Assembly: GCA_030649735.1 (NCBI GenBank)
Contig: JAUSFL010000044.1
Span: 1 to 64,000 of the forward strand
From: Candidatus Iainarchaeum sp.
GTDB taxonomy: Archaea; Iainarchaeota; Iainarchaeia; Iainarchaeales; UBA10191
Length of the DNA stretch: 64,000 bases
Direction: 5' to 3'
Under the pieces are notes generated by a model, which ran no database searches, was not told where the DNA came from, and was given only the letters and a program-made list of their open reading frames with translations. Positions 19,079 through 64,000 of this stretch are shown piece by piece. Within the stretch, counting starts at the first letter, position 1; each line of letters opens with the position of its first letter. A program made the position numbers and the translations under genes.

Positions 19079-19792
19079 ATGAATTCAGTCTTGAATTTTT
19101 CCACAATTGAAAAAAAGGAAGTCTTGAAGTTTTTGGAGAACTTTCCAAGCTCTGGCGTGCGTTCAGAGTTTGAGGAATACCGTTGCAAGATTCTGGACTG
19201 TGCTGTAGTGCTTTACAAATCGGGAAAGCTTTTGATTCAAGGAAACTCTGCGGAAAAAGTGAAGGCGACAATTTTGCAAAAGGTTTCTTTCAAGGACGAA
19301 CTAGTGCTTGGAATTGATGAAGTCGGCAGGGGCGAAGGCTTTGGAGCTTTTGTTGTTGCAGGGGTTTTGGGAAAAACAAGCGCTTTGCGCGAGCTAAGGG
19401 ACAGCAAGAAAACCGCAAAGGAAAAAATTCCTGAAAAGGCAAGGCTTGTGAAAAAAAATGCGGAGTGGTTTTTTGTTGAAATTTCGGCGAGTGAAATTGA
19501 CTCTTTAAGAGAGTTAGGCACTACAATGAATCAAATCCAGGCAAACGCAGTGAACAAAATCATCAAGCATTTTGAAGCCGAAAAAGCAAAAGAAAAATTC
19601 CGGATTGTAGTTGACGGCTCGAAAATCAAAGGCATTGACAAGAAAGCAGAATTTTTGACAAAAGCCGACGACCTTGTAGTGCAATGCGCTGCTGCTTCAA
19701 TAATCGCAAAAGACGCAAGAAATAATAGCAAGGATTCTGGAAAAAGAAATACTTGGAAAAGCAAGGAAAATTCAGAGAAAACAAAAAATTAA
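19079..19792 (+). CDS. Ribonuclease HIII-like protein (TBP-like N-domain plus RNase H type 2 domain)
   Basis: VLYKSGKLLIQG N-domain; GIDEVGRG, LRDSKK, VVDG, ADD...AAASIIAK. Confidence 0.75.
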   Translation: MNSVLNFSTIEKKEVLKFLENFPSSGVRSEFEEYRCKILDCAVVLYKSGKLLIQGNSAEKVKATILQKVSFKDELVLGIDEVGRGEGFGAFVVAGVLGKTSALRELRDSKKTAKEKIPEKARLVKKNAEWFFVEISASEIDSLRELGTTMNQIQANAVNKIIKHFEAEKAKEKFRIVVDGSKIKGIDKKAEFLTKADDLVVQCAAASIIAKDARNNSKDSGKRNTWKSKENSEKTKN

Positions 19793-22703: not shown

Positions 22704-22757
22704 TTTTAGTATTCTGGGGGCATTTTTTTAAAAAGTGTAGTGCCTAACAATTATGTC

Positions 22758-40982: not shown

Positions 40983-41393
40983 ATGGATAATTTTCGGGTT
41001 GCTGTAAAAGCATTGATTTTGGACGACGAAAACAATTTGCTGCTTGTCAGGCGAAGCCATGATGACAAAGTGGCCGCCGGGCTTTGGGAAATTCCTGGCG
41101 GAAGGCTGGAGCTTGGCGAAAGCCCTTTTGATGGATTAAAGAGAGAAGTGATGGAAGAAACTGGAATTCCAATAGATATTGGGGCTCCAGTAAACGTGCA
41201 GCATTTCACAAACACGGACAAGGTTGTAATAACAATGATTATTTTCAAATGCAAGGCGCTTTCAAAGGAAGTAAAGCTTGTTGACGGAGAGCTTTCAGAA
41301 TTTGGCTGGGTGAAAATTCCTGAAGCAAAAGCCAAAATTACAAAATACTTCCATAAGGAAATAGATATTCTGGAAAAAATGGCTGGTGTTTAG
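40983..41393 (+). CDS. NUDIX hydrolase
   Basis: PGGRLELGESPFDGLKREVMEETG. Confidence 0.92.
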   Translation: MDNFRVAVKALILDDENNLLLVRRSHDDKVAAGLWEIPGGRLELGESPFDGLKREVMEETGIPIDIGAPVNVQHFTNTDKVVITMIIFKCKALSKEVKLVDGELSEFGWVKIPEAKAKITKYFHKEIDILEKMAGV

Positions 41394-41395
41394 AA

Positions 41396-43285
41396 ATGCC
41401 GAAACTAAAATGCGGGATTGAAGTGCACCAGCAGCTTGATACTGGAAAATTGTTCTGCCGCTGCCCGAGCTTTTTGCGCGATGACAAGCCAGAATTCACT
41501 GTTGAAAGAAAGCTTCGTGCTGTTGCATCTGAAATGGGCGAATTTGACGCTGCAGCCTTGGAAGCAATGCAAAAGAATTATACGTTTGTTTATGAAGGAC
41601 ACCACGAAAACGCATGCCTAACGGACATTGACGAATCCCCGCCAATGCCAGTTGATAAAGAAGCCTTGAGAATAGTCCTAGAAGTTGCATTGCTTGCAAA
41701 ATCAACAGTGCTTGACAAGGTTTTTGTAATGCGAAAGGCAGTTGTTGACGGAAGCAACACTTCAGGCTTCCAAAGAACAGCGCTTGTCAGTACTGGCGGA
41801 AGCCTGAAAATCAATGAAAAAAAAAGCGTGGGCATTCAGACAATTGCGTTGGAAGAGGACGCTTGCAGGCCTTCAAAGAAAGACGAGGAAAACAAGAGAA
41901 TTTACTACCGTCTGGACAGGCTGGGAATTCCATTGATTGAGCTTGCGACAGCGCCAGACATTGAAACTCCAGAAGAGGCAAAAGAGACTGCATTGGCCAT
42001 TGGAAAATTATTGAGGATTACTTGCAAGGCAATGAGGGGCTTGGGGACAATAAGGCAGGACTTGAACATCAGCATTGAAGGCGGAGCAAGAATTGAAATC
42101 AAGGGCTGCCAGGATTTGGAAATGCTTGAAGAGCTTGTAAGGCGGGAAATGCAAAGGCAGGAAAAGCTTTTGGAATTGAAGAAAATTCTTTCTTCAAAAG
42201 CAAAGCCCGAAGATTTTGGAAAATTCGAGATTTTAGAGCTTTCGGAATTTTTCAAGAATTCTGAAAACAAGCTAGTGAAGGGAAAAAAGATTTTTGGGGC
42301 AAGAATTCCAAAAATGAAAGGACTGCTTGGAATTGAATTACAGCCCGGAAGACGGTTTGGAAGCGAATTGTCAGACCAAGTGAAGGCAAAGGCAGGCTTG
42401 AAGGGATTATTGCACAGCGACGAGCTGCCGAATTATGGAATTACTGAAGCAGAGAAGAGTCGCATTGCAGGCAAGCTTGATATTCCTCTTGACGATATAC
42501 TGCTCCCTTATGGCGACGCTTTCATTCTAGTGATTGCAGAAAAAGAAGCAGCGGAGAAAGCATTCAAAGCAATCAGCGCAAGGATTTTGCAGGCTTTCAA
42601 AGGAGTTCCTGAAGAAACCCGCAATGCTTTAGAGAACGGAAACACTGAATATTCGCGCCCTTTGCCCGGAGCTGCTAGAATGTATCCTGAAACCGACATT
42701 GCTTCTTTTGAAACTTCAGAAAAAGAACTCAGCGAGTTGGAGAAAGAGCTGCCTTTATGGCCGCAAGAACGCGTGAGGCTTTACACTGAAAAATTCGGGG
42801 TTTCAAGACAGCTTGCAGAAAAGATGTCATTGGACAATTACGCAATCTTTTTTGAAAGCCTTGCGAAAAAAGGCTTTGATGCAACGCAAGCCGCTGTTTT
42901 GCTTTTGGAGGGATTGACTCAGCTTTCAAGGGAAGGAATCAATGTTGAAAAATTTACGGAGCAACAGATTGAAGAATCATTGCAGCTTTTGAAAGATAAA
43001 AAACTGACCAAAGAGACAGTTCTTGAATTCTTGAAATTACGGAGCAAAAATCAGTTCAAACTTGCAGCGGAATTGCTAAAAGAGTTAGGCACTACAAGTG
43101 TTTCAGAAAAAGAAGTGCAAAAAACAATTGCCGCAATTGTTGCAAAAAGCTCTGCGCTCATTAAGGAAAAAGGCGACCGGGCAATTTCAGCATTGATGGG
43201 TGAGGCAATGAAAGAACTGAAAGGAAAAACTGACGGGGCAACAATCTCGCGAATTCTAAAAGAAGAAATTGCAAAGCTCAAATAA
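41396..43285 (+). CDS. gatE: Glu-tRNA(Gln) amidotransferase subunit E
   Basis: GIEVHQQL, DGSNTSGFQRT, LDRLGIPLIE, RPLPGAARMYPETD. Confidence 0.97.
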   Translation: MPKLKCGIEVHQQLDTGKLFCRCPSFLRDDKPEFTVERKLRAVASEMGEFDAAALEAMQKNYTFVYEGHHENACLTDIDESPPMPVDKEALRIVLEVALLAKSTVLDKVFVMRKAVVDGSNTSGFQRTALVSTGGSLKINEKKSVGIQTIALEEDACRPSKKDEENKRIYYRLDRLGIPLIELATAPDIETPEEAKETALAIGKLLRITCKAMRGLGTIRQDLNISIEGGARIEIKGCQDLEMLEELVRREMQRQEKLLELKKILSSKAKPEDFGKFEILELSEFFKNSENKLVKGKKIFGARIPKMKGLLGIELQPGRRFGSELSDQVKAKAGLKGLLHSDELPNYGITEAEKSRIAGKLDIPLDDILLPYGDAFILVIAEKEAAEKAFKAISARILQAFKGVPEETRNALENGNTEYSRPLPGAARMYPETDIASFETSEKELSELEKELPLWPQERVRLYTEKFGVSRQLAEKMSLDNYAIFFESLAKKGFDATQAAVLLLEGLTQLSREGINVEKFTEQQIEESLQLLKDKKLTKETVLEFLKLRSKNQFKLAAELLKELGTTSVSEKEVQKTIAAIVAKSSALIKEKGDRAISALMGEAMKELKGKTDGATISRILKEEIAKLK

Positions 43286-43317
43286 AAAAGAATTAGGCAC
43301 TACTGAGTTGAAAAACA

Positions 43318-43980
43318 ATGAAGCATTTTCCAATAGCTAAAGAATTGCATACTGATGTTCTGGCTCAAAAGTACGGGCAAATTTCAGCAAAAGTATTAAG
43401 GCATGATGAAAAAGCAAGGGAAGCGCACTTGATTGATTCTAATGGAATTTCAAGAACTTTTGCAATAACGCTCTTTCCCAAAAGCATTCCCAAGCAAATC
43501 AAAAAGATTAATGAACAAATAAAGAATGGCAGTCCAATTGGCGAAACTTTCAGGCAGAACGGCTTTGAAGTCAGAAAGAATGTTTTAAGCGTTAACATAC
43601 TTCAAATTCCAAAATGGCTAAAGAATGATTTTAGAACTGGAAAAGCAAGTGCAAAATACAGGATTTCTGAATTTTACGCAAAAAGCCAAAAATCAAAGCC
43701 AGTAATTTATGGGACAGTCATTGAAATTTACTCCCCGGACTTTAGGGAAGCCAAAATAAACCAAATTGACTTGATTCAATTAAGTGCTCCAACAGAAGCA
43801 TTGAAAAAAGCAGGGTTTTCAATGCAGGAAATCTGGGAAAAAATCGGCGATGCTTCATTAAAATCCCAGCAAGCACTGAGAGAAAAAGCCAACCCAAAAG
43901 CCGGAAAACTAGTCAGAGAAATGGAAAATGAAATAATGGATATTTTATCACTGCCTCACCAAAGCATTAGAAAGAGTTAG
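43318..43980 (+). CDS. Hypothetical protein bracketed by GTTAGGCACTAC motifs
   Basis: 220-aa ORF; stop codon TAG lies inside the motif. Confidence 0.7.
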   Translation: MKHFPIAKELHTDVLAQKYGQISAKVLRHDEKAREAHLIDSNGISRTFAITLFPKSIPKQIKKINEQIKNGSPIGETFRQNGFEVRKNVLSVNILQIPKWLKNDFRTGKASAKYRISEFYAKSQKSKPVIYGTVIEIYSPDFREAKINQIDLIQLSAPTEALKKAGFSMQEIWEKIGDASLKSQQALREKANPKAGKLVREMENEIMDILSLPHQSIRKS

Positions 43981-44006
43981 GCACTATTTTTTTAGAAATC
44001 AAGAGC

Positions 44007-44444
44007 TTACACAAATGCGGAAATCAAAACAATCAAATACCACAAAGCCAAGTTTGTAATGCTTAGCATGCCTAATTGCTTTTTTGCTTTAAAGAATTCT
44101 TCAGAAGGCTTTTCGCCGGGCTTTGCAAGCTTTTGCATTTTTTTAACCCTTAAAAAAATCAAGGCTCCAATTGCAACTATCAAAACCACCAAAGCATGCT
44201 TTATTAGTAGTAAATTCGTGTCAAGCGGCCATTTTACAAGGCTTGTTACTGCAATTCCGGAAATTATGAGCAAAACCAAGCCAGCCCAGATTAGTTTTGA
44301 CAGCGCGGGAATTATTTTCATCAAGCTTGCGGCAACTTCCGGATTTTTCTCCGCCTTCATTGAAATAATTGCGGCTGCTGTTGCTCCGCCAACTCCCCAG
44401 GCCAATCCAATAAAGTGCAGAAAATTGAAAATTTCTAAAAGCAT
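44007..44444 (-). CDS. Four-TM membrane protein (CopD/DUF2269-like)
   Basis: LHFIGLAWGVGG, LLIISG, IKHAL. Confidence 0.65.
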   Translation of the reverse strand: MLLEIFNFLHFIGLAWGVGGATAAAIISMKAEKNPEVAASLMKIIPALSKLIWAGLVLLIISGIAVTSLVKWPLDTNLLLIKHALVVLIVAIGALIFLRVKKMQKLAKPGEKPSEEFFKAKKQLGMLSITNLALWYLIVLISAFV

Positions 44445-44522
44445 GCTTTGATTAAAAGCGCTTTAGTTTTTAATTTTTCCTGCCAAAAAGCCCGAAAAAG
44501 CGGGATAAAAAGAAAATAAAAT

Positions 44523-44547
44523 GAAAAGCCGCAAAAAACGGCTTTTC
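44523..44547. terminator. Hairpin with T/A runs, probable terminator of 44563..45039
   Basis: GAAAAGCCG-caaaaaa-CGGCTTTTC. Confidence 0.5.
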
Positions 44548-44562
44548 AAAAACTGGTTCAAA

Positions 44563-45039
44563 TCATTTTTTCTTGAACACGTTCAAGGCAAGGAATGCTC
44601 CAATAACTCCCAAGATTGCGCCAATTATTATTGCCACAATTATGCCGATTATTAGGCCGACTATTCCAATTGCAGCTCCAAGGCCTGCAGCTGCTGGGTT
44701 TGAGCCAATGCCTGCCGAAATCAATGGCGCAACAAGCAATAACTGCAAAATTCCGCCAATAATTCCGGAAATTACTGCAACAACTGCTCCTGCAACAGCT
44801 CCTGAAACATATGCTTCAGCGGCTGGCGCTTTCTTTGCGGCTTCAAGGCCTGCCCAAATTACAACTACCCAAATCAGCAATCCAATAAGTCCTGCCAATC
44901 CAATCGAGCCAACTGCGGCAAGCGGGTTTCCTCCAGCGCCAGCCCAGGCAGCGTAAGTAATTGCAATCACGACTAATTCCAAAACAATGGCCAGTATTAT
45001 TTGAGTTTTAACCGCCATTGCTGTTTTCATTATATCCAT
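44563..45039 (-). CDS. Gly/Ala/Ile-rich four-TM membrane protein
   Basis: Hydrophobic ORF with GGAGGG upstream. Confidence 0.7.
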   Translation of the reverse strand: MDIMKTAMAVKTQIILAIVLELVVIAITYAAWAGAGGNPLAAVGSIGLAGLIGLLIWVVVIWAGLEAAKKAPAAEAYVSGAVAGAVVAVISGIIGGILQLLLVAPLISAGIGSNPAAAGLGAAIGIVGLIIGIIVAIIIGAILGVIGAFLALNVFKKK

Positions 45040-45157
45040 TAAAATAATCCCTCCATTAATGTAATAGAAATAAACAACGAGCCCGGCTTAATAAAACTTT
45101 GCGGGTTAAAAAACAAGGGTTTTTTTCAATATTTTAAACCATTCTGCCGGCCATTCT

Positions 45158-45255
45158 CAGTTATCAAATATTCAAAATTACGGAGCAAAAACTCTTTCAA
45201 ACTTGCAGCGGAAATTCTAAAAGAGTTAGGCACTACAATTGTTTCAGAAAAAAAG
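45158..45255 (+). repeat. Diverged copy of gatE segment 43017..43115 containing GTTAGGCACTACA
   Basis: About 15 mismatches over about 97 nt; reads KLRSKNSFKLAAEILKELGTT versus KLRSKNQFKLAAELLKELGTT. Confidence 0.9.
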
Positions 45256-45260
45256 CCAAA

Positions 45261-45602
45261 TTATAAGAATTTTACAAACTTGTTGTTTTCATTGACTAAA
45301 ATCTTTTTTGCTTTCACTGGCTTGCTTGAAAGCTCAAAGCCCATTATTATCACGCGTTCTCCGGCTTTTATCAAGTGCGCTGCAGCTCCATTAATGCAAA
45401 CAATTCCCGAACCTTCATTTCCGGGCATTATGTAAGTTTCAAGCCTTACCCCAGAACTCTTGCTAACAACCAGTGCTTTCTCCCCACTCAAGAAACCGGC
45501 TTTTTTCATAAGGGCAGAGTCAATGGTAATGCTTCCCTCATACTCTACATTAGCTTCTGTTACAGTCGCATCATGAATTTTAGACCTTAGCACCCAGCGC
45601 AT
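45261..45602 (-). CDS. panD: Pyruvoyl-dependent aspartate 1-decarboxylase
   Basis: SKIH.ATVTEA...YEG/SITID, RLETY, CINGAAA. Confidence 0.93.
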   Translation of the reverse strand: MRWVLRSKIHDATVTEANVEYEGSITIDSALMKKAGFLSGEKALVVSKSSGVRLETYIMPGNEGSGIVCINGAAAHLIKAGERVIIMGFELSSKPVKAKKILVNENNKFVKFL

Positions 45603-45675
45603 TCCAAAACACCAATTATTTTCTTAAAGTATTTTGTTGCAATTAGTATTTAAGAATTTAAGTAAAAGTTAGGCA

Positions 45676-46863
45676 CTACAAATTTGAAATTTTAACTACT
45701 CCCCATTCAAGAATTTCTCGCGAATCATAATATAGTGGTTTCCTACCATAATAAATCCAACCAGTTATTTTGTAAATGTGGTTTTTTGGAAGCCGCAGTT
45801 TTTCAAGTATTCTATCTGCGCTCAATCCAGTACTTCGTAATTGAATAGTTTTTTCATAAGTTTCCCATTCTTTCTTTAATCCACTGGAGTTTTTTAGAAA
45901 TGTTTCAACTGCCTTAACAAATTTGGCTTGCTTTTTCTCCGCATATTTGAAAGGAATTTCCTGAAATAATTTGACAATATTTGGGCTTCGTCCATCAATA
46001 TAGAATGAGATTTTCTGTGAAAGAGTTCCATCCTTTCTTAATGTCCTATTTTTCTCTCCAGCAATTGGTGAAGAAGTAACTCCAAACTCAGCCAACAAGG
46101 ATTTTACTTGTTCATGAAATTTTATTAGCTCATTTACCTTTGACTCAACTTTATGCAATCCAAAAGTTGCAGAAGTAAATGCATTCTTTGCTCTAATAAA
46201 AGGGCATTGCAACTCGTTGCCAAAAAGAACACTCAGAAAAGCGCGTTTTATCTCCTTATCAGAATTCATTACCCAATCAGGAACTTTTGTTGAAGAAGAA
46301 ACTTTATCCCCAACAGGAGCGCCCGCCAAGAATAATAATCTTGCAAGCGGAGAACTATTAACATTTAAACGATAATCACCCCCTTTTGGATAAGTTCGAT
46401 ATAGTACCCTATTTTTTATTTTTCTTATTTCTGACTCCGAAGAATTAATTGCCAAATGCGGTTCGATTTTGTATTGCTTGAACAATAATGATGCAATCAA
46501 CTCCAAGTCTTCTTTCTCGCCAAAAAGGGAAAAGGCGCCCAAATGTTTCATTAAATGGCCATCACCAAATAGAAATGCAGATAGCTCTGTAAAAAGAAGA
46601 AAACTTTGAGTATCTTCTACTTTTAATGGAATCAATCTAATTGACTTAAGATAATTCAAGGCTCTAATTGGAAAAGGCACTCTTTTGTCAGATAACCAAC
46701 TGTATATTGTCCTTTCAGGATGCTTTATCAAGCGCGATATTTCAGAAATAGTCTTTATTGAATTTTGCAATTCTTTAGCTTGAATATACTTTTCTGCCAG
46801 GTTTAATTGCCGGTCTCCAAAAGAAGCAAGAAATTTATTCTCATCAACAATTATTTCTTCCAT
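45676..46863 (-). CDS. Free-standing LAGLIDADG endonuclease-like protein with HTH-like ends
   Basis: LSAFLFGDGHL and FLSVLFGNEL; GAPVGDK...VPDWV; no intein termini; AT-rich. Confidence 0.75.
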   Translation of the reverse strand: MEEIIVDENKFLASFGDRQLNLAEKYIQAKELQNSIKTISEISRLIKHPERTIYSWLSDKRVPFPIRALNYLKSIRLIPLKVEDTQSFLLFTELSAFLFGDGHLMKHLGAFSLFGEKEDLELIASLLFKQYKIEPHLAINSSESEIRKIKNRVLYRTYPKGGDYRLNVNSSPLARLLFLAGAPVGDKVSSSTKVPDWVMNSDKEIKRAFLSVLFGNELQCPFIRAKNAFTSATFGLHKVESKVNELIKFHEQVKSLLAEFGVTSSPIAGEKNRTLRKDGTLSQKISFYIDGRSPNIVKLFQEIPFKYAEKKQAKFVKAVETFLKNSSGLKKEWETYEKTIQLRSTGLSADRILEKLRLPKNHIYKITGWIYYGRKPLYYDSREILEWGVVKISNL

Positions 46864-46922
46864 TAATAACTTCTAATTTAATTATTTAAGAACACTGGGG
46901 AGCCAAAGCGCCAGTCGTAAAA

Positions 46923-47138
46923 TCAAACCATTTTGCCTGCAAGCCTTTTTGCAACACGCCTGCATTTCGTGTGAAAGTATTGTCCCATCCACTTAACGTC
47001 TGTCGGGCCTTTTCCGCAAATCGCGCAGGTTTCGCTGAATTTTCCCGAGTTTTGGCTTTCTGAAGCCCCAGAATTTTTTTGCAATGGAGCCGCAGAATTT
47101 TCTTCTGGCTTTTTTCTGAAACCGTCCAATAATCCCAT
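46923..47138 (-). CDS. Small zinc-finger hypothetical protein
   Basis: CAICG...FHTKC; AGGTG upstream. Confidence 0.65.
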   Translation of the reverse strand: MGLLDGFRKKPEENSAAPLQKNSGASESQNSGKFSETCAICGKGPTDVKWMGQYFHTKCRRVAKRLAGKMV

Positions 47139-47192
47139 TAATGCACCTTTTACAAAAAGATTAAACCTGCAAAGTTATTAAATATTGCTTGA

Positions 47193-48122
47193 ATGCTTGA
47201 TACTTGCATGATTCCCGAAAGGCTCAAGGCTGGCGACTGCATTGGAATAATATCTCCATCCGGCGCTATGGAGAAAGAAAGAATGGGCCAGTTTGAGCAT
47301 GGCAGGGCTTTTTTTGAAAAGCATGAATTCAAAGTAATTTTGGCAAAAAACGCGCTAAGCAATTCTCTGGGCTATTCTGCAAGCCCTGCTGAAAAGGCAG
47401 AAGACTTGAACAGCATGTTCAAAGACAATTCAATAAAGGCCATTATTTGCTCGCAGGGCGGCCAGAATTCCAATTCTATTCTTCCATTGCTTGATTTTAA
47501 ATCAATTGCAAAAAACCCAAAGATTTTCCTTGGAATAAGTGACATTACAGTATTATTGAACGCAATTTACTCAAGGACCGGGCTTGTCACATTTCACGGT
47601 AATGACTTGGTGTGGGGTTTTGGAAGAAACCCGACTGCTTATGACATCCTGGAATTTGATGATAGGCTGGTTGGAGGAAAAACAGGCCTAATTACCAAGA
47701 ATTCAGAATGGATTTGCGTCAGGGAAGGAAATGCAAAAGGAGTATTGATTGGCGGGAGCATAAATTGCATGAACAAGCTTGTGGGTACAAAATTCGCGCC
47801 TGATTTTAAGGGCAAAATCTTGTTTTTGGAGTCTTATGGGGAAGGAAGAACTGCAGATGAGCTTGACGGCCAGATACAAAGACTAAAGCAGTCGGGGGCT
47901 TTCGAGAAAATCAAGGGATTATGGCTTGGCTATTATAAATCAAAAGACAATTTTGCAATTGAAACAGTAGTGCAAAACTCCCTTAAAGAATTTGATTTTC
48001 CAATATTAAAGTGCAATGACTTTGGACATAATACTCCAAACACTACAATTCCAATTGGGGTAAAAGCAGAACTTGATGCTGATAAAAGAACTTTGGAAAT
48101 CTTGGAAAAGTGCGTGAAATAA
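47193..48122 (+). CDS. S66 peptidase (LD-carboxypeptidase / MccF family)
   Basis: GISDIT nucleophile motif, LFLE, FGHNTPN. Confidence 0.92.
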   Translation: MLDTCMIPERLKAGDCIGIISPSGAMEKERMGQFEHGRAFFEKHEFKVILAKNALSNSLGYSASPAEKAEDLNSMFKDNSIKAIICSQGGQNSNSILPLLDFKSIAKNPKIFLGISDITVLLNAIYSRTGLVTFHGNDLVWGFGRNPTAYDILEFDDRLVGGKTGLITKNSEWICVREGNAKGVLIGGSINCMNKLVGTKFAPDFKGKILFLESYGEGRTADELDGQIQRLKQSGAFEKIKGLWLGYYKSKDNFAIETVVQNSLKEFDFPILKCNDFGHNTPNTTIPIGVKAELDADKRTLEILEKCVK

Positions 48123-48143
48123 TTCACCATTTTTGCTTTTTTG

Positions 48144-49229
48144 TCATGAATTCCTGACATACTCCAACGACAAAATGCCGTTAAGTTTTGGGGTTTCTGG
48201 ATTCCTAATATTTTCCCCTTTAGGCGTATCAGTGCTACCCTTCAGCACATCTCTGTCTGTGCTGAATCGAGATATGCCTTGGCGATACAAACTTGCAATA
48301 TTGAATCCTGCGTTTGCATCGGCATTCTCAACCACCCCACATTTCGTGCAGTGGAATTCTTTTAGTTTTCTGTTCCTTGCTTCTATATGACCGCACTTAC
48401 TACACCTTTGCGAAGTATATTGCGGTTCAACATAGGCAACAGGCACTCCGAACTTTTTGGATTTGTATTCTATCATTTTTTGCAACTGATAAAAACTCCA
48501 AGAGTTTATGGAATACCTCTGCTTTCTTCTCATTTTTGTAGTCTTTCGAATATCTTTCAATTCTTCAAGTACTATAATTGCTTTGCTATTTTGTGCTTCA
48601 TCAATCAATTTCTTGCTTATCTGGTGATTAATATTCCTAATGATTCTGCTCTCTCTATCTTTGATTTTCTTAACAAGAGAATGCTTGCCATTCTTTTGAA
48701 GTGACCGTCTTATGTTTTTATATTTTGTGTGAATATGATTGCACTTCTTACCTAGCTTAAGCACTTTTCCAGTATCAATATTTGAAGCTACAAGGACATG
48801 CTTAATTGTATTTCTATCCACACCAATCACTTGCTTTGGTTTGTATTGACAAGGTTCTTCGTATGAATATGACACATAAGCAAAAGTCTCCCCAATTTCA
48901 ACTTGGTTTATCTTCTTAAATGAAATATTAAAGCGAATTGGAAGTGTTAATTTCAGACAAGGTATTATTATCTCTTTTTTTGTGAATCTAATTCCTTGAG
49001 AAGGAACAGTCAGTTTTACTGAATTTACAGTTTTGATTGTTTTATTTTTGGCATACTTTCGGAGGATTTGGTTGGCAATCACTGATTTCAAGCCAATATG
49101 TTTTACATCTTTGCTTGATAATGTTCTCTCTCTTATTGCATACTCAGCTATTTTCTTTGCCAAGCTAAGTTCTCTGCTAAAGTTCTGATAATGCTTTATT
49201 TTGAGAGTCAATATCAAAAAAGACCACAA
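48144..49229 (-). CDS. tnpB: TnpB RNA-guided endonuclease (second, distinct clade)
   Basis: RuvC GVDRN, VLEEL, NADANAG; Zn finger YTSQRCSKCG...CTKCG. Confidence 0.9.
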   Translation of the reverse strand: MWSFLILTLKIKHYQNFSRELSLAKKIAEYAIRERTLSSKDVKHIGLKSVIANQILRKYAKNKTIKTVNSVKLTVPSQGIRFTKKEIIIPCLKLTLPIRFNISFKKINQVEIGETFAYVSYSYEEPCQYKPKQVIGVDRNTIKHVLVASNIDTGKVLKLGKKCNHIHTKYKNIRRSLQKNGKHSLVKKIKDRESRIIRNINHQISKKLIDEAQNSKAIIVLEELKDIRKTTKMRRKQRYSINSWSFYQLQKMIEYKSKKFGVPVAYVEPQYTSQRCSKCGHIEARNRKLKEFHCTKCGVVENADANAGFNIASLYRQGISRFSTDRDVLKGSTDTPKGENIRNPETPKLNGILSLEYVRNS

Positions 49230-49338: not shown

Positions 49339-50136
49339 CTACCAGTTTACTCTTTTACTCATAAATTCATAAAACAAGTAAATTTGGGCAAAGCCTTTAT
49401 ACTCGTGCCATAATTCTTCTGCTTTTTGCAAGTACTGGTCGTTTTTTGCTTCTTTTCCTTGAAAGTAAACTTTGCTCATTGCGCGCTTCATCCAAACATC
49501 CAATGGAAATCCATTAGTGTCGCCAAAGCCATAAAGCAGAATGCATTCTGCAATTTTTTCTCCAATGCCTGGGCAGGAAAGCAGGAATTCTTTCAGTTCT
49601 GCAGAGTTCTTGAATTTCAAATCTCCCCTTTGCAAGACCTTCAGTGTAGTGCCTAACAAGTACTGGTCGCGAAAACCGCACTTTACTTTTCGAAAATCCT
49701 GCACTGTGCATTTTGCAAAGTCTTCAGGCATTGGAAATTCATGCAGGCCTTCCACTTTTGCCCCGTAAGCATTCATTAATTCCTGCACGTTCATTCTGAT
49801 TATTGGAATGCTCCTGTTCGAGCTTAGCAGGAAGCAGACTATTGTTTCCCACAAGTCGCTTTGCGTCAAGCGCAGGCCTTTGTAATCCTTGACTGCCTGC
49901 TTCATGAAAGAGTCTGTTGAAATTTTCGCAAAAACCATTTTGTAATTGTCATTGCTCCGTAAAGTGAACTCTGCAAACTTTGCATTATTGGTTTTCAGTT
50001 TTCCTTGCTCTTGCATTAACTCGACAATTTTTCCATTCCGGGCCCTTTTGAAAACTCCGCGGTCTTCCTGCCAGACAAACTGTGGAGTTTGCCCTGAAAG
50101 CATTGTCAAACCAAGATTCAATGACTTTGGCAGCAT
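49339..50136 (-). CDS. 8-oxoguanine DNA glycosylase (OGG1/HhH-GPD family)
   Basis: TMLSGQ.PQF.W, CPGIGEKIAECILLYG, FPLDVW, GFAQIYLF. Confidence 0.88.
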   Translation of the reverse strand: MLPKSLNLGLTMLSGQTPQFVWQEDRGVFKRARNGKIVELMQEQGKLKTNNAKFAEFTLRSNDNYKMVFAKISTDSFMKQAVKDYKGLRLTQSDLWETIVCFLLSSNRSIPIIRMNVQELMNAYGAKVEGLHEFPMPEDFAKCTVQDFRKVKCGFRDQYLLGTTLKVLQRGDLKFKNSAELKEFLLSCPGIGEKIAECILLYGFGDTNGFPLDVWMKRAMSKVYFQGKEAKNDQYLQKAEELWHEYKGFAQIYLFYEFMSKRVNW

Positions 50137-51153: not shown

Positions 51154-51226
51154 AGCCCCGTAGTATAGTGGCCAAGTATGCCGGGCTTTGAACCCGTTGA
51201 CGGGAGTCCGAATCTCCCCGGGGCTA
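51154..51226 (+). tRNA. tRNA-Gln(TTG)
   Basis: A1-T72 acceptor stem AGCCCCG/CGGGGCT, anticodon loop CTTTGAA; T-loop reads TCCGAAT. Confidence 0.9.
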
Positions 51227-51290
51227 TTAGCCAAAAGTTAGTAGCCTCTTTCCTCGTTTCTTTTAAAGTCCGAGGAAGGAGGTTATTAAC

Positions 51291-52562
51291 ATGGAAGAAA
51301 ACGTTTTCGACCCGCATGGTTTGACCAAGCGAATGGAAGCAGAATTACGAAAGATTTCCTTGCTTCCAGAACCCAATAAATCTCTAATTCTGGATTTTTT
51401 GCACAATTACAGGTACAAAAAGAAGTCTTTGAGCTTGGCCAGGCGTTGTCGTTTGGCAAGCCAGTTTCACTTTTTTGCCAAGCTTTCAGGAAAGCCTTTG
51501 AATCCTTTTAGAGAACAGGATGCTCGAAGCTTGGTTGGCTTGATTGAAAGGTATGAGAATTCTCGAAAGCCTTATTCTTTGCATACTTGGAAAGAAATCG
51601 TAAAGAATGTTAAGATTTGGGTTAAATGGGTTAATCCTGAAGACTACCCTAACGTTTTGTTGAAGTGTAAAGATGTTTTAACAGTCCAAAACCCTTACTC
51701 AGACCCTAAAAGAAAAGCCAGTCTTGAGGATTTCTTGATTACTGACGAAACCTTCCTGAAGCTTTTGAATGTAGCCAAAGACCAACAAAAAGCCATTCTA
51801 GCCATTGGATTTGGCTGCGGTTCAAGAACTGGAGAGCTCTTGGGTTTGCGTAGAAAAGACTTGAAATTCAATCCTGACGGAACAATATCGCTTTCTTTTC
51901 TTGAAAGCAAAACTTTTCCCCGAGAAAATATTTTATTAAGTCCAGACTTATCCTGTTACGTGCGAGAATGATTTGAAAAAAGCCCGTTGAAAAGCCAGAA
52001 TGACTTCTTTTTCTGCACTGTCAACGGCCCGCCAAAACCACTATCTCAAAACGCTCTTGGAATAATCCTAAAACGCCTGGCTGTCAAAGCCGGCTTAGGA
52101 AAATGGAAGAAAGTCAAGTCAAGCAATGGCATTTGGTATTCTCACTATCAAGGCCAAAGAATCTATTTCACTAAATTCCGGCGTTCTGCAGCAACTTGGG
52201 CTTTAAAAAACTTGAAAAGCCACGCCTTAGCTGGCAAAAGAATCTGGGGTAACGAAGCTTCAAGCATGATTAAAATTTACTCTGGATTAGTTTCTGAAGA
52301 CGCTAACGAAGCTTACAGGGAAGCTTTAGGTTTAGCACAACCAACTCAAGTCGAAAACATTCTGAAGCCTAAAACCTGCTTCAAATGCCATACAATGCTT
52401 TCTCCAACTCAAAGCCTTTGCCCAAACTGTAAAATAGAAACAGACACTTCAAAATTAATAGATACTCAATTACTGAAAGAAGCAGAAATGACAGCCTTAA
52501 GGGAAGAAATGAAAATGCTCCAAACAGCACTAGCGCAAATAACCCTAAAAATGCAAAGTTAG
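51291..52562 (+). pseudogene. Tyrosine recombinase/integrase with C-terminal Zn ribbon, in-frame TGA at 51969-51971
   Basis: Two ORFs in the same frame; GSRTGELL (R), SKT (K), KFRRSAAT (R), KIYS (Y), CFKC...CPNC. Confidence 0.85.
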
Positions 52563-52822
52563 GCACTACGCCGGAACTAAAAAAGCAATAAAAAAGCTTC
52601 AAAAGCTAAGAAAAACAGTAAAAATAATGATTGCGCCAATCAAAGCAAAATAATGTTACAAAAAAAGGAATACGAGCTGAAAGAAACAACCTATTGGTTG
52701 AAAGGAGGGAAAATCCAGCTAAAAATTTCCCCCGAATAAAAGATTATTCTTAGAGTGTGGATCCAAATCAATAAGCTCGCTCATTAAATCTTCAATTTTT
52801 TTGACAATCATTTTCAAGATTA

Positions 52823-53728
52823 TTATTGATTCCATTTCCTTTGCGTTTCTATTTTAGCGTGTAGTTTAAACTTTTTTCTGAATTGATTAATTTTTTCTTG
52901 AAAATCTTTTGGGTAGGTCTTAGATTTCTCGTTGAATAAAAATTTTAAATATCCTACTTTTTGTGGATTTACTCCTATTAATTGGGCCAGTGTAAAGTCA
53001 CACATGAATGGGTTATCGGATGCTAGCGCCCAATTGCAATTTATTTTGGTTCCAAACAGCGGTCCATTCCCCTCCATGCCTAGATAGCCATCAATTATTG
53101 AATAATTTGGATACGCTTTCTTGATTAAACTGGCCAAATTATAATGAATTAATTTAATACTTTGCAAGTATTCTTTTCCTTTTAAGGTGTGTTTTCTCAA
53201 GCCATGAATTTTCACTCGATCTTCTGGTTTGATTAATGGCATTACAAAGTTTTTGGTTGAACTTGTCATAATAGCGTAATCATGTGACTTTGGAACTGTC
53301 ATTGATATCAAAATATCATAATCTAGAAAAGTCCGATTAATTCTAACTTTATCCCACCCATAAATGGTTTTAACTGGGTGGGAGAAATATTCTGAGTCCA
53401 AATTTAGATCAACAAAAGATGCTCCGTGTTTTTGAATGATGTCCCAAACGCCAAATTTTTTGAGTGTTGATTTGGTAGTAAGCCCTTGTTGCCAGGACTC
53501 GCCGCTTCCTTCAGCCACTGTAATTTTAGATGGGTGGTGTTCTGTTAAGATTTGTAAAACAGTGTCTAGCGATTCTGCAGAGGTATCTGCTAGTTGGGTA
53601 TTGCAAGAAGTAAAATTTGGTTTTATAAAAATAGATTTATCCCGTATTTTGTCGTCTGAGAATAGTTTTGGAACTATTGAACGTATGTTTTCAACTCTGT
53701 TTTTGCCGCCAGTCAACAAAATTTTCAT
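52823..53728 (-). CDS. DUF362-domain protein
   Basis: IKPNF, VAEGSG, VPKSH, IIDGYLGMEGNGP..G. Confidence 0.85.
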   Translation of the reverse strand: MKILLTGGKNRVENIRSIVPKLFSDDKIRDKSIFIKPNFTSCNTQLADTSAESLDTVLQILTEHHPSKITVAEGSGESWQQGLTTKSTLKKFGVWDIIQKHGASFVDLNLDSEYFSHPVKTIYGWDKVRINRTFLDYDILISMTVPKSHDYAIMTSSTKNFVMPLIKPEDRVKIHGLRKHTLKGKEYLQSIKLIHYNLASLIKKAYPNYSIIDGYLGMEGNGPLFGTKINCNWALASDNPFMCDFTLAQLIGVNPQKVGYLKFLFNEKSKTYPKDFQEKINQFRKKFKLHAKIETQRKWNQ

Positions 53729-54408
53729 GCATTCACTTTAATTAATTTTGGGTGGTTATAATTTGCATTGTTTATAACTAAATTGGCTGCTTTTTTTGGG
53801 TGGTTTTTTCTAAGGTACCATTGTTGGGCTGGTTTGTGCCAATGGTTCCACCGAAATATTACTTCTTTTCTGGAAATTTTTCTCACAATTGGCTCTCTTT
53901 TAAGTTGCCGTTCAAACGAGCATGAAAATGGAATGTCTAAAAAAATTCTGAACGCCGGTATCTTGCTAAATTCCTTTTTTGATAGAAAAACGCCCTCAAC
54001 GATTAAAATTGATTCTTTTTTGACTTGTATTTTTTCCTTTTTTTTCTTGGTTTTATTGTTAAATATTAAGGATTCTTTTTCTAGTTTGCCTTTCTGAATG
54101 AATGTTGTTAGAATTTTTTTTATGGTTATAAAATCAAACCATTGGCTATAATATGCTTTCCAGGAAGATTTTCCGTTTCTGATTCTCTTGGTTTCGGTTT
54201 TCAAAAAGTCATCCACCCGTAATTGGGTGGATTTTATCGCCTTGCTGTAAAGGCTTTTTTTTAGATTGCGGGCAAAGTATGTTTTTCCGGATGCGTCTAT
54301 TCCGTCCACAAAAATAATGGTTTTCCCACTCTTCAAAAATGAGTTTACTACCATTGTCATTATTGAATCTGTTTTCCTATTTGGCCAATTCTGTTGGGGC
54401 ATAGACAT
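53725..54408 (-). CDS. Uridine-kinase-like P-loop kinase
   Basis: VDGIDASGKT, VDDF, LIVEGVFL. Confidence 0.8.
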   Translation of the reverse strand: MSMPQQNWPNRKTDSIMTMVVNSFLKSGKTIIFVDGIDASGKTYFARNLKKSLYSKAIKSTQLRVDDFLKTETKRIRNGKSSWKAYYSQWFDFITIKKILTTFIQKGKLEKESLIFNNKTKKKKEKIQVKKESILIVEGVFLSKKEFSKIPAFRIFLDIPFSCSFERQLKREPIVRKISRKEVIFRWNHWHKPAQQWYLRKNHPKKAANLVINNANYNHPKLIKVNA

Positions 54409-54454
54409 TTAAAGAATATAATCATTAATAAAAGCTTCCGAATTGAATGATTCT

Positions 54455-55786
54455 ATGCAAAAAAGATTGACGGAGAAAATCATACAAGTTGTTCTGAAAG
54501 ATTTGATTCATCAGCCCACCAATAGTAAAAGCCGCGCTGAATTGATTTTAGACTGCTTGTTTGAAGGAAGAAAGGGGATTAGCTGGGATTTTCGTTGCGA
54601 TTTGTATTTCTTTTTTCTGAAAACGATTGTTACTAAAATGATGAAAGAGAACCGGGAGCTCATTGATACTGTGAAAAAAGGTTACTGCGATTATTCTATT
54701 TTTAAAAAAGCGCTTAACAAGGCCCTCAAACTTTATCTTACCAGTATTGTGGAATATGGAATCACAACTCCCCAAAAATTTAGCTTTCCATTCCTTGTGG
54801 AATTTGAACTCACTAATAAGTGCAATTTGGCGTGTAAACATTGTTATGCAAATGCTGGTAAAGAGCTGGCTGATGAAATTAATACTCAAGAAGCAAAAGA
54901 AATCCTTAACCAGCTAAACAATATAGGTGTTCCAATAGTCTGTTTCACTGGCGGAGAGCCCTTTCTAAGGGCAGACTTCTTTGAATTACTTGAACACTCT
55001 AATAAAATAGGCCTCTTGACTGTTATAACTAGTAATGGAACCTTGATTACAAAGGAAAGTGCAGCCAGACTCAAAGAATTGCAAGTGGAATATATTAGAA
55101 TCAGCTTGGACAGTGCAACCCCTAAAACGCACGATTGGCTAAGGGGAATGCCAGGAGCCTACGAGCAAACCATTCAAGGAATAAAAAATTCTATCCAAGC
55201 TGGAATCAAAACCGGAGTCACTACAGTTTTGATTCAAGAAAACTCGTCAGAAATGGAACAAATGATAGAACTTTTGAGCCAATTAGGGTGTTCAGATTTT
55301 ACTGTGTGCAGGTTGTTTCCATTAGGTAAAGGAAGTTCGTTGCAAAATAGTTTGCTTAACAAAGAAGAATTGAGTAAAGTGGAATCTCGCATTTCGGCAA
55401 AAGCAAAAGAGCACCCTAATCTTTTGATGAATCCTTTGACGCTGGAAGGCAGAATCCATTCAAAAAAAGACATGCTACGGAAAATAACAGACATGATTGG
55501 AGGCTGCCCTGCCGGATTAAACGTATGCGCCATTACTCCTAAAGGGGAAATAAAGCCTTGCGCGCTAATGTCTATAACCGCGGGGGATTTTAAAAAACAA
55601 AAGTTTGAAGAAGTCTGGAAAAACAGTCGGTTATTTAATGAACTTCGGGATCGCTCGCTGCTTAAAGGAAAATGTTCCGCTTGCGAATTCAAATTTTCGT
55701 GCGGTGGTTGTCGTGCAACCGCATATGGTTATACTGGAGATTACCTTGAGACAGACCCCATCACATGCATGTTACGTATAAAATGA
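54455..55786 (+). CDS. Radical SAM/SPASM protein (paralog 1)
   Basis: CNLACKHC, TGGEP, SPASM CPAG...PC...CxxC...CGGCRA. Confidence 0.92.
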   Translation: MQKRLTEKIIQVVLKDLIHQPTNSKSRAELILDCLFEGRKGISWDFRCDLYFFFLKTIVTKMMKENRELIDTVKKGYCDYSIFKKALNKALKLYLTSIVEYGITTPQKFSFPFLVEFELTNKCNLACKHCYANAGKELADEINTQEAKEILNQLNNIGVPIVCFTGGEPFLRADFFELLEHSNKIGLLTVITSNGTLITKESAARLKELQVEYIRISLDSATPKTHDWLRGMPGAYEQTIQGIKNSIQAGIKTGVTTVLIQENSSEMEQMIELLSQLGCSDFTVCRLFPLGKGSSLQNSLLNKEELSKVESRISAKAKEHPNLLMNPLTLEGRIHSKKDMLRKITDMIGGCPAGLNVCAITPKGEIKPCALMSITAGDFKKQKFEEVWKNSRLFNELRDRSLLKGKCSACEFKFSCGGCRATAYGYTGDYLETDPITCMLRIK

Positions 55787-55807
55787 CTCCGCTAATGGGA
55801 TGATAAT

Positions 55808-57160: not shown

Positions 57161-57182
57161 GATTGGGAAAAAGCGTGATTGA

Positions 57183-58397: not shown

Positions 58398-59334
58398 ACT
58401 CCTTCGAAAAGAAATCACTTCATTGAAACAGTTTAACGAACGGCAAAAAATTTCTGGAATTAGCAAATCAGGAGATCCCCAATTTAAAGTGGATAATATT
58501 GCTGAAAACTTTCTTTTAAAACAAATAAAAAAGATTTCCAAAAAAACAAGCATTGCTTATTTTTCAGAAGATAAAGGCCTTGTTCGTTTTGCAAAAAACC
58601 CAGAGTATTTGCTGATTTGCGACCCAATTGATGGATCAAGACCGTTCTCAGCTGGTTTTGAGTCAAATAACTTTTCGATTGCACTTGCAGAAACAAATGG
58701 TAAAGACCCCACGGATTTAACATTTGCTCAAATAGTCTCGGGTTTTTTATTGGAACTGAAAACCGGAGAATATCTTTTTGCGGAAAAAGGAAAAGGAGTT
58801 ATTCAAAACGGAGCTAAATTTCAACCTAAACCCACTCGTTTTAATAGCAATAACTTGAACCAATTGTTTTGGAGTTTTGAATTCAATGGAACCCCCTCAA
58901 GAATTGTTCATGAAATACTGGGTGATTTGATTGATACTTCAGCAAATAAGGGGGGCATTTTTGTTTTCAATTCTGGAAGTTATTCAATTTCAAGAGTGAT
59001 TACTGGCCAACTTCACGCATATATTGACATTGGAAATTTGGTTTTGAAGAAATTTCCCGAACTTGAAAAAGAATTCAAATCTGTAGGTTCGGGATCAATT
59101 CTGCACTTGTTCCCGTATGACATTGCAGCCTCCTACATTATTGCAAAAGAAGCGCACATAAGCATTGCAGATGCTGCAGGAAATTCATTGGAATCTCTTT
59201 CCCTAACAGATTTATCTGCACAAAATCAAACTTCTTGCGTATGCGCGCTGAATGAAAAGCTATCCAAGAAACTAATTAACGAGATTTCTGTAAACCTAGA
59301 AAAAAAACGAAAACAAATCGCTGAAGAACAGTGA
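58345..59334 (+). CDS. Inositol monophosphatase / FIG-superfamily phosphatase
   Basis: FSED, CDPIDGS, YDIAAS; start may be slightly downstream. Confidence 0.85.
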   Translation: MKQKEKLNWQMEFLRMGKLLRKEITSLKQFNERQKISGISKSGDPQFKVDNIAENFLLKQIKKISKKTSIAYFSEDKGLVRFAKNPEYLLICDPIDGSRPFSAGFESNNFSIALAETNGKDPTDLTFAQIVSGFLLELKTGEYLFAEKGKGVIQNGAKFQPKPTRFNSNNLNQLFWSFEFNGTPSRIVHEILGDLIDTSANKGGIFVFNSGSYSISRVITGQLHAYIDIGNLVLKKFPELEKEFKSVGSGSILHLFPYDIAASYIIAKEAHISIADAAGNSLESLSLTDLSAQNQTSCVCALNEKLSKKLINEISVNLEKKRKQIAEEQ

Positions 59335-62070: not shown

Positions 62071-62344
62071 TGTAGTGCCTATGTCTCTATTTTTGCTTTT
62101 GTTTTCGGGACATTTACAAGACATTTTTTGGGTTTGCGGGACAATTAATTGGCAATTTTATAGTTGATTTTTTTGATTCGTATTTTTTTTGCCGACATTT
62201 TCCCGACATTTTTTCACTTTTCCCGACACCCATTTTGTAGTGCCTAATGCTGCTTTCAATTTTCCTATTTTCTGCTTAGTGCCATTTTTGTGCCATTTTT
62301 TTACTTTGCGTGTCATTCAAAGCTTGCATCTTCTGTAGTGCCTA
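62071..62344. repeat. Cluster of short direct repeats (three TGTAGTGCCTA; GACATTT, CCGACA and GTGCCATTTTT repeats)
   Basis: Read directly in a T-rich non-coding region. Confidence 0.8.
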
Positions 62345-62519
62345 TGCTCCGCTTTATTCACTTGCTTGCCAGTAACTGAGTTAACTCATGCTTAAATAAT
62401 TCAATGTAGAAGGTATGTCTAGAGAGTTTTCAAAACTGCTTTATAAAAGCAGAAGTAAGGACTTCTCATGAGAAACCCGACAACGACAATAAGAAGGCCG
62501 GAACAGAAATTAATGCAAG

Positions 62520-62708
62520 GTGAAGAAATTGGAACTACAGCAAACTCTTACAGTTAGGAAGAATGAGCAAATGACGGCAAAGCAAGTGGCCTTGTTGCTG
62601 GCGAGAAAGACAGATTTTGAGTTAAAGCGAGAGTTTCCGGTTTTTTGGGAATTGCTTGCAATAAAAAGCAAAAGTTGGAAAAGTGTTGATGATGAGTTTG
62701 AATATTGA
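62520..62708 (+). CDS. Small hypothetical protein
   Basis: 62-aa ORF overlapping the next ORF. Confidence 0.45.
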   Translation: MKKLELQQTLTVRKNEQMTAKQVALLLARKTDFELKREFPVFWELLAIKSKSWKSVDDEFEY

Positions 62709-62919
62709 GTTGAGAATACCAAAGCAAGTAGTGCCTAACTGTTTTCTCTGCCTCTCAAACAAAAGAAAACGCAAAAAAATGGTGTTCCGTACAACCCAAA
62801 GAAGATGGGTTTGCAAAGAATGCCTTGACGCGCTTGGAGAAAACCAAATACAACAAATGCTTGAAAAAATTCCTTTGGCTGAAGATATAATATTCAGAAA
62901 GCCAAGCATCAATTTTTAG
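62692..62919 (+). CDS. Small zinc-finger protein
   Basis: CFLC...WVCKEC. Confidence 0.55.
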   Translation: MSLNIELRIPKQVVPNCFLCLSNKRKRKKMVFRTTQRRWVCKECLDALGENQIQQMLEKIPLAEDIIFRKPSINF

Positions 62920-62927
62920 TGATTGCT

Positions 62928-63999: not shown

Positions 64000-64000
64000 G

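Follow-up and report, generated by a model that had tools for sequence, protein, structure and literature searches.

The stretch of DNA analysed here (the window; 64,000 nucleotides, nt) is part of contig C44 (JAUSFL010000044.1, positions 1 to 64,000) of Candidatus Iainarchaeum sp., GenBank assembly GCA_030649735.1. This genome, G000, comprises 1,281,898 bp in 51 contigs, has a GC content of 41.6% and is 92.7% complete. Within and downstream of gatE the window contains five plus-strand copies of a 13-nt motif of the form (A/G)TTAGGCACTA(C/T), which partition the region into the tail of gatE, an open reading frame (ORF) without family assignment (ORF220), two membrane protein genes and panD; a gene for a protein resembling intein-type homing endonucleases (ORF395) follows (Table 1). 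We rate the chances as about even that this motif is a sequence-specific recombination joint at which modules are added, lost or exchanged.

The places and the common orientation of the five copies are as given in a preliminary description of this DNA (copy 2 begins at 43292), and the motif does supply the TAG stops of 43318..43980 and 45676..46863, as had been claimed there. The more general claim that motifs sit at gene ends is right for copies 3 and 5, which are at stops, and wrong for copy 1, which is internal to gatE. When one mismatch is allowed, the 10-mer TTAGGCACTA is found 15 times in the window against a shuffle mean of 2.34 and a maximum of 8, so that none of 100 shuffles reaches the observed count. 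The gatE-like fragment at 45158-45252, which spans copy 4, can be read as a dislodged fragment from the 3' part of a gatE.

Table 1. Motif copies and genes of the region downstream of gatE, followed by the other motif copies of the window
Feature	Position	Strand	Description
Motif copy 1	43084..43096	+	GTTAGGCACTACA; within gatE, 190 nt inside, in-frame (E)LGTT
Motif copy 2	43292..43304	+	ATTAGGCACTACT; 7 nt past the gatE stop, 13 nt ahead of the ORF220 ATG; left edge of the ORF220 module
Motif copy 3	43976..43988	+	GTTAGGCACTATT; holds the ORF220 TAG stop 43978-43980; right edge of the ORF220 module
Motif copy 4	45225..45237	+	GTTAGGCACTACA; within the gatE-like fragment
Motif copy 5	45668..45680	+	GTTAGGCACTACA; antisense is the ORF395 TAG stop (reverse complement of 45676-45678); similarity to L165 resumes here
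gatE	41396..43285	+	GatB_N, GAD and GatB_Yqey domains
ORF220	43318..43980	+	220 amino acids, no family; presence/absence module
DUF2269 membrane protein gene	44007..44444	-	DUF2269
Second membrane protein gene	44563..45039	-	weak DUF5518 match at most
gatE remnant	45158..45252	+	95 nt, 85% identical to gatE 43017-43111; spans copy 4
panD	45261..45602	-	aspartate decarboxylase
ORF395	45676..46863	-	395 amino acids; free-standing, intein-type homing endonuclease-like, helix-turn-helix-like ends; motif adjoining here and in L165
Further motif copy	19513..19525	+	in-frame ELGTT within RNase HII
Further motif copy	22736..22748	-	intergenic; 33 nt upstream of a TatD-like gene
Further motif copy	49645..49657	-	in-frame LLGTT within an OGG-like glycosylase gene; same place in G001
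Further motif copy	52558..52570	+	GTTAGGCACTACG; contains the stop codon (TAG) that ends the second half of a split integrase, beside tRNA 51154-51226
Four motif or motif-like copies	62071..62739 (62071, 62236, 62334, 62727)	-	non-coding stretch, far end of the low-GC island

The first seven bases of the motif, GTTAGGC, had been matched to the integron core consensus GTTRRRY; this is true of four of the five copies, copy 2 beginning with ATT instead. A true integron or a CALIN, in which IntI would recombine attC cassettes, would also account for the single orientation of the sites and their position at gene boundaries, and integrons do exist in archaeal metagenome-assembled genomes (MAGs), where they have the bacterial layout of IntI plus attC according to Ghaly et al. 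(2022, PMC9668308). As in integron cassette arrays, single genes at our locus may be present or absent with one site left. Other features speak against this explanation. The 81-nt DNA around each of the five copies folds no better than shuffled sequence (200 shuffles each, z +0.46 to +1.83), in line with the earlier remark that no attC palindrome is present. The best tyrosine recombinase of G000, encoded on another contig (C49 3751-4725), passes the archaeal XerA equivalog model with 273.5 bits (cut-off 220) and remains below the cut-offs for integron integrases (208.8 vs 265 and 148.8 vs 435); other Phage_integrase matches in G000 are weaker than XerA. Integron cassettes are co-oriented behind attI/Pc, whereas ORF220 is a plus-strand gene and both membrane genes, like panD and ORF395, are minus-strand genes. 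The site is a plain 13-mer found genome-wide, also inside housekeeping genes, and the sole junction that can be placed to the base, in dph2 of a genome of the same genus (G001), falls after motif base 12, at the 3' edge, and not at G|TT. The site is not an integron, and we give an integron or CALIN origin hardly any credence; the integron-like assignment of the preliminary description is not supported.

In G000 as a whole the exact 13-mer occurs 23 times where 0.038 occurrences are expected, 19 more copies differ by one mismatch, and the 10-mer core TAGGCACTAC is present in 50 copies at 30 loci. Among 41 genomes (G000 counted) the exact 13-mer is present in five, with 23 copies in G000, 27 in G001, 10 and 6 in G002 and G003 of the sister genus and 2 in one genome from another family; 36 same-order genomes have none, and a reversed control gives 0-1. 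A 14-mer was further searched for in 596 Gb of species-representative genomes; among the matches listed, many multi-copy ones are in MAGs titled Altiarchaeota, Micrarchaeota, Iainarchaeum or 'archaeon', and the bacterial loci hold a single copy each. In four MAGs titled Altiarchaeota or Micrarchaeota a 12-mer was counted 71, 33, 23 and 13 times (reversed control 0-1), and the GatD protein of the richest of these, with 71 copies, is 42% identical to that of the window. The 31 archaeal loci that were inspected have unrelated flanks and a GC content of 29-61%, and in the Altiarchaeota and Micrarchaeota MAGs ordinary housekeeping genes flank the motif, which frequently forms short arrays or pairs with a distance of 21-25 nt. 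The motif is strongly over-represented and conserved at the base level across distant genomes.

Chance, or an assembly or adapter artefact, is an extremely improbable source of this pattern. Every genome concerned is a MAG, and motif copies of G001 lie at most 300 nt from a contig end in 4 of its 11 motif-bearing contigs, as an artefact might have it; on the other side stand the 0 of 100 shuffles that reach the window count, the frame bias of coding copies (17 of 18, see below), the recurrence at the same orthologous positions in different assemblies and in records of several studies, and the single-copy bacterial loci among the matches listed, set against about 4400 chance 14-mer matches expected by arithmetic in 596 Gb.

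The 30 loci of G000 are spread unevenly over its contigs: C44 has 7 vs 1.8 expected, C23 has 4 vs 0.8 and the 160-kb C46 has 1 vs 3.8, a statistic reached by 73 of 20000 permutations. Neighbouring sites are co-oriented in 23 of 35 pairs, and on C23 all seven motif copies are on the plus strand, though the genes there point both ways; GC skew was uninformative with regard to motif orientation. Two MAGs titled Altiarchaeota or Altiarchaeales (G196 locus L088, G199 locus L160) have motif pairs or arrays in a shared syntenic place, where a Lon-like gene precedes them and an OB-fold gene follows, so motif arrays can keep their position across genomes; inverted motif arrays lie a few kb off in both. 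Full-text literature searches with the motif sequence and its complement returned unrelated primers only and no paper printing the motif in this context, and nothing relevant was found on Altiarchaeota intergenic repeat motifs. Within the limits of the literature searched, the motif and its behaviour appear undescribed so far.

Comparison with relatives places gene presence and absence at the motif. One contig of run X1, which is probably the sample of origin, is identical to the window over 41000-48500. A contig of 873 nt from a different study (X3, record 19) runs along 43064-43289 (226 nt, 21 differences) and then along 43991-44488 (498 nt, 64 differences), with the 16 letters AATTAGGCACTACAAA at the joint; since the skip removes 701 nt, ORF220 is missing and one motif is left. 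The same empty form, without ORF220 and with a single motif at the joint, is present in the JGI contig L167 (about 83-86% DNA identity), which is a record separate from the X3 contig and may share one population with it. In a further JGI contig, L165 (about 72% identity), the order is gatD, gatE with an internal in-frame motif, ORF245, a gatE remnant, motif, a 45-nt unit, motif and an ORF395 homolog. ORF220, the membrane genes and panD are missing from this contig, similarity to the window restarts at 45667, one base ahead of copy 5, and the ORF395 homolog (4033-5220, minus strand) again has its stop within the motif. The gatE remnant of L165 at 3893-3975 corresponds to the last ~85 nt of a gatE, and displaced gatE pieces thus adjoin motifs in two lineages, here and at 45158-45252 of the window. 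Displaced pieces of this kind are what remains after an integrative element has supplied a gene with a new end. In several cases, therefore, strain-level gene presence or absence and replacement boundaries fall exactly on the motif. In G001 the region downstream of gatE was recovered by DNA similarity only for the ORF395 part, the G001 contig stopping short of the copy 5 position by about 160 nt. Two further candidates from these comparisons were discarded: joints in X1 with 21-nt sides, as evidence for circles or deletions, which are short-sided or motif-only matches, and a junction at the gatE-internal motif, where identity between G000 and L167 is 408/483 upstream (42601-43083) and 171/189 downstream, too weak a difference.

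Smaller insertions also abut the motif. The dph2 gene of G001 contains a 141-nt in-frame insertion directly after GTTAGGCACTAC, with two extra motif copies inside; its ends are the inverted GCGGAGCAC/GTGCTCCGC, also given as GGCGGAGCAC ... GTGCTCCGC, and no motif is present at the right edge. In the lysA-like gene of G001 an extra 30 nt keep the frame, and a second motif stands 45 nt past the first. Arrays in G001 repeat with a period of 44-45 nt in the pattern [motif, N6-7, GCGGAGCA, N17-19], a layout also seen at G000 C30 26614-26740, on G000 C39 and at L165 3983-4065, and the tRNA-adjacent array, which belongs to a conserved neighbourhood of TFE, tRNA, ORF140 and XerA, numbers 3 copies in G000 vs 7 in G001. 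On C39 (33800-34330, minus strand) and C30 (26190-26740) of G000, a gene for a HicB-like antitoxin and another small gene each end in a motif TAG, and behind each comes another unit that contains GCGGAGCA and a T-run; this suggests that the 3' ends of these genes were cut or replaced at the site.

These units raise the possibility that the motif is mainly an insertion target and internal part of small non-autonomous elements (45-nt units, and elements of 80-140 nt with inverted GCGGAGCA ends and a small hairpin), of which the gene-sized differences would be by-products. The regular G001 pattern, its counterparts on C30 and in L165 and the inverted ends of the dph2 insertion would fit such elements, as would the abundance of GCGGAGCA itself (59 vs ~18 expected, 8 of the 59 within 200 nt of a motif). 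A hairpin adjoins the motif at G001 L011 2628-2680, L015 2503-2664, L016 and L017 1945; by inspection its stem GCCTT/AAGGC is exchanged for GCGG/CCGC with both sides changed together and the loop TTTCGC kept. We nevertheless find this explanation improbable: most copies in G000, and most in the 31 inspected archaeal loci, have no adjoining unit, the ORF220 module and the conserved coding copies are left unexplained, and no linked transposase was seen, the window's two TnpB genes sharing no DNA and having no consistent relation to the motif.

The five copies belong to a dispersed family of an asymmetric, unstructured 13-nt site, (A/G)GTTAGGCACTACA, with about 50 copies at 30 loci in a 1.28-Mb genome. 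At the recombination joint proposed above, modules of tens of bases up to whole genes would be gained, lost or exchanged, and the 3' end of the site would form one of their edges; downstream of gatE, the predicted modules would be ORF220, the two membrane genes, panD and ORF395. The far edge of a module would often be another copy of the site, and same-orientation arrays would therefore accumulate between genes. Gene ends would be cut or replaced at the site, with displaced gene ends as by-products. The site is a source of new stop codons, since one of its sense frames contains TAG and its antisense frames contain TAG and TAA, and these built-in stops may limit the damage. We infer that the joints are made by a sequence-specific enzyme, either by conservative site-specific recombination or by nick-and-join at the 3' edge.

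A number of observations weigh against a dedicated joint of this kind. Recombination between direct repeats of 13-16 nt could delete ORF220 without a dedicated enzyme. A relative from a third study (X2) is without 45155-46961 (1807 nt) and 47139-48122 (984 nt), and the breakpoints are outside the motif: both joints contain filler letters, and the first gap, which takes in the gatE-like fragment, copy 4, panD, copy 5 and ORF395, begins 4 nt before the gatE-like fragment. In L165, ORF245 has been inserted without motif boundaries. It encodes 245 amino acids with an HEAAH metalloprotease-like string (3155-3892) and sits at the gatE stop with an overlapping TAATG, the older gatE end being pushed downstream. 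The earlier proposal that gains and losses in relatives break at the motif consequently stands for the loss of ORF220 in X3 and L167 and for the resumption of L165 at 45667, and does not stand for the X2 gaps or ORF245. In a rough census over 43.2 kb, 17 of 30 gaps or synteny breaks between G001 and G000 are without motif and 13 are with it, the census being biased in that the G001 loci were picked for holding motifs. Excised circles joined at the motif, suggested earlier as a check, were not found: no circle junction was seen in these data, and the only back-joint (X3 45689>45216) has motif-only sides.

Also on the negative side, no enzyme was seen to co-occur with the motif. XerA lies amid motif copies in G000 and G001, and this archaeal XerA is the only candidate enzyme seen in G000. 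In G002, G196 and G200 the ~0.8-1.5 kb to the left and right of XerA contain no motif, and the two most motif-rich MAGs, G198 and G199, have no XerA homolog at E<=1e-10; a role for XerA as universal partner is unsupported. A Y1 transposase (PF01797) was not found in G000, although the model did find matches in the control genomes.

Other proteins near the motif were considered and set aside as partners. Residues 69-349 of ORF395 align with the intein part of NCBIfam models for intein-containing RtcB, RFC and GyrA (E 2.6e-28), and two LAGLIDADG-like strings are visible in its translation; there is no Pfam LAGLIDADG match at E<=5 and no PDB sequence match below E 0.7, so its earlier designation as a LAGLIDADG gene is supported only indirectly, by the alignment and the strings. 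An ORF395-type protein is kept in three related genomes (window 45676-46863, minus strand; L165 4033-5220, minus strand; G001 L013 8059-9000) and is absent from the X2 relative. As a motif partner it was rejected, with homologs only in G002 (24%) and G199 (30%, in a 976-residue frame) and none in G196, G198 or G200; a motif-linked paralog is also missing from G000. For ORF140, which adjoins the C49 array, a motif-binding role was likewise rejected, since 37 of the 41 genomes have this core gene and most of those lack the motif. Two genes of the window, at 17841-19016 (plus strand) and 48144-49229 (minus strand), encode TnpB/Cas12f-like proteins with OrfB_IS605 and zinc-ribbon domains and have no mutual DNA similarity; the motif is downstream of one and upstream of the other, for which reason a link between TnpB and motif was dropped. 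The LD-carboxypeptidase gene adjoining the second TnpB is missing in X2.

The copies within genes weigh against the proposed joint in a different manner. By a rough ORF call, on which the coding and intergenic classes rest, 20 of the 50 core copies in G000 are inside ORFs, 18 of them on the strand of the gene, 6 overlap an ORF end and 24 are intergenic. Seventeen of the 18 same-strand copies read (L/I)GTT and one reads VRHY, and at gene ends the motif is used in its TAG frame. The genes with in-frame copies include gatE, those for RNase HII and an OGG-like glycosylase, dph2 (twice) and a lysA-like decarboxylase gene (twice). Between G000 and G001, whose DNA is ~70-77% identical in these genes, the motif is base-perfect at both orthologous dph2 sites, in the OGG-like gene and at one of two sites in the lysA-like gene, where the remaining site has two changed bases at its 5' edge. 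The motif at dph2 site 2 is present even in G003, from another genus. Protein alignments have no indel at the coding copies, and outgroup residues are replaced: ELGTT stands opposite KTKAK, NTQAK, QTGAQ or KTGTE, the native pattern at dph2 site 2 is L-[GSC]-[TA]-[TS], and GatE outgroups have ADLGTT, MSLGS or a gap of 4 residues at the position of copy 1. At G001 L014 a VRHY-frame copy lies over the KERHAL codons of G000 with length unchanged, and it includes synonymous changes toward the motif, CGC CAT becoming AGG CAC. Because coding copies read LGTT and are base-perfect at orthologous positions, the site itself is maintained. It has been written into tolerant positions and then kept, which is unexpected for a mere insertion target. 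An insertion target in essential genes should decay, and some other function or drive therefore acts on the site. A pure cassette-capture site, as implied in the preliminary description, fails to account for a motif that is genome-wide, extends to other lineages of archaea and persists within housekeeping genes.

It is possible, if on balance unlikely, that the 13-mer is preserved as a signal in its own right, host-level or self-driving, and either of uptake type or a site for a chromosomal protein, for example a single-arm Xer site like bacterial XDS, without dedicated cassette machinery. Since the motif is a repeated identical word, deletions, swaps and arrays would then arise by ordinary short-homology recombination or slippage. 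The coding copies just described are the main support: frame-biased, placed without indels in housekeeping genes and conserved at orthologous sites. The arrays in the conserved TFE/tRNA/ORF140/XerA neighbourhood of both G000 and G001 would agree with it as well. DNA uptake sequences of Neisseria and Pasteurellaceae are over-represented 10-13-mers with a very high, fairly even density; our motif is like them in its frame-biased copies at tolerant, conserved positions (dph2, lysA-like, OGG-like) and in that copies are often near gene 3' ends, ahead of T-runs. It is unlike them in its density, which at ~1 per 26 kb is ~25 times sparser, in its clustering over contigs, in forming tandem arrays whose spacers vary (21-25 and 44-45 nt), in indel junctions exactly at the site, and in being common to distant phylum-level lineages and missing from sister families. 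Its confinement within the order to one family, together with its presence in distant lineages, looks like the result of transfer and not of inheritance. The one-sided insertion in G001 dph2 is a further difficulty, as recombination from motif to motif cannot make or remove an insertion that has the motif only at its left edge. For the chromosomal-protein variant, PMC11840125 mentions bacterial XDS sites, which are dif-like, are bound by XerD and have a role other than recombination; the TAA-N6-8-TTA that it reports for archaeal dif is missing from the motif. A mixed picture, in which a maintained protein-binding site is also where recombination is catalysed, is quite possible.

Other features of the window and its surroundings are mentioned for completeness. 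A low-GC island adjoining tRNA 51154-51226 extends over 51154-64000 of the window and on to about 64.6 kb of C44, with a GC fraction of 0.35-0.39 vs 0.41-0.43 upstream; the site of this island measures ~13.4 kb in G000 vs ~2 kb in G001. It contains an integrase broken by a stop codon (51291-51971 and 51987-52562) and a metabolic cluster with DUF362, a kinase, two radical SAM/SPASM genes, an aminotransferase, inositol monophosphatase, CDP-alcohol phosphatidyltransferase, PEMT and ADH. The island ends in 900 nt of non-coding DNA, where iteron-like short repeats of AATGTCGGGAAAA-type and ATGTCCCGAAAA-type words are found between motif copies (62090-62250, minus strand). Rfam gave nothing but tRNAs above thresholds in the window, and one tRNA plus one chance-level match (E<=1) on five G001 array loci. 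No regular CRISPR-type repeat-spacer array is formed by the motif, whose spacings range from 21 to more than 700 nt.

Among known systems, plasmid pdif modules and IMEX elements are Xer-dependent modules, and the proposed joint resembles them in several ways. Short sites of recombinase type delimit gene modules, the site is as long as a single Xer arm, G000 contains one perfect 11-6-11 palindrome built from the motif (C45 38437-38462), and the XerA gene is amid arrays in G000 and G001. A 28-bp Xer site has two inverted 11-bp arms and a 6-bp spacer, whereas the five copies of Table 1 are single arms, and XerA of other motif-bearing genomes has no motif nearby. The most conserved feature of archaeal dif according to PMC11840125, TAA-N6-8-TTA, is by inspection present in neither the motif nor the C45 palindrome. 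This palindrome was rejected as a chromosomal dif, being found in 1 of 196 genomes of the order, and so was a looser head-to-head pattern, found in 1 of 5 genomes as a chance match in a Thr-rich ORF without motif. The site is not a recognisable dif. The palindrome, CATAGGCACTACA-ACTACC-TGTAGTGCCTAT, forms one flank of a secreted or membrane ORF of 221 amino acids (C45 38434-39210; L024 1935-2710), the other flank being a tail-to-tail pair of the same word, and a neighbouring TrmB-like regulator gene also holds an in-frame copy.

Short repeats also separate variable intergenic segments in Neisseria NIME/dRS3 arrays and in REP/REPIN-RAYT systems, which share with the motif that the repeats are hot spots of insertion or exchange and that a single recombinase gene lies amid them. 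The motif differs in being non-palindromic and in occurring in frame inside genes; no Y1/RAYT was found in G000, IS110/Piv-type enzymes not having been searched for. The target word of IS200/IS605 elements has 4-5 nt. The G001 dph2 insertion, a single case, fits these elements and their miniature derivatives in being directly 3' of a specific word without target duplication; a small hairpin lies near the end, as in such elements, and the window contains TnpB genes. Unlike these, the target has 12-13 nt and the TnpB genes are unlinked to motif copies. With no Y1 transposase found, the site is not of IS200/IS605 type by the usual criterion.

DPANN archaea and Altiarchaeota have small genomes known almost only from metagenomes, and their gene gain and loss are poorly understood. 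In lineages whose core proteins are ~40% identical, the 13-mer recurs 10-70 times per genome. We tentatively suggest, as a possibility on the doubtful side, that it marks an archaeal system for the exchange of gene modules on a plain, unstructured 13-nt site that is identical at the base level in Iainarchaeota-, Micrarchaeota- and Altiarchaeota-type genomes, one that would be actively maintained in housekeeping genes in the one tolerant frame, would use an enzyme outside the families normally searched, and would serve as a currency for cross-phylum trade in genes and gene ends among small symbiotic or groundwater archaea. A word that marks gene gain and loss and is preserved inside essential genes would be a search key for variable regions in MAGs and a candidate substrate for the biochemical fishing of the enzyme, and it may point to a way in which genes pass between phyla living in the same habitat.

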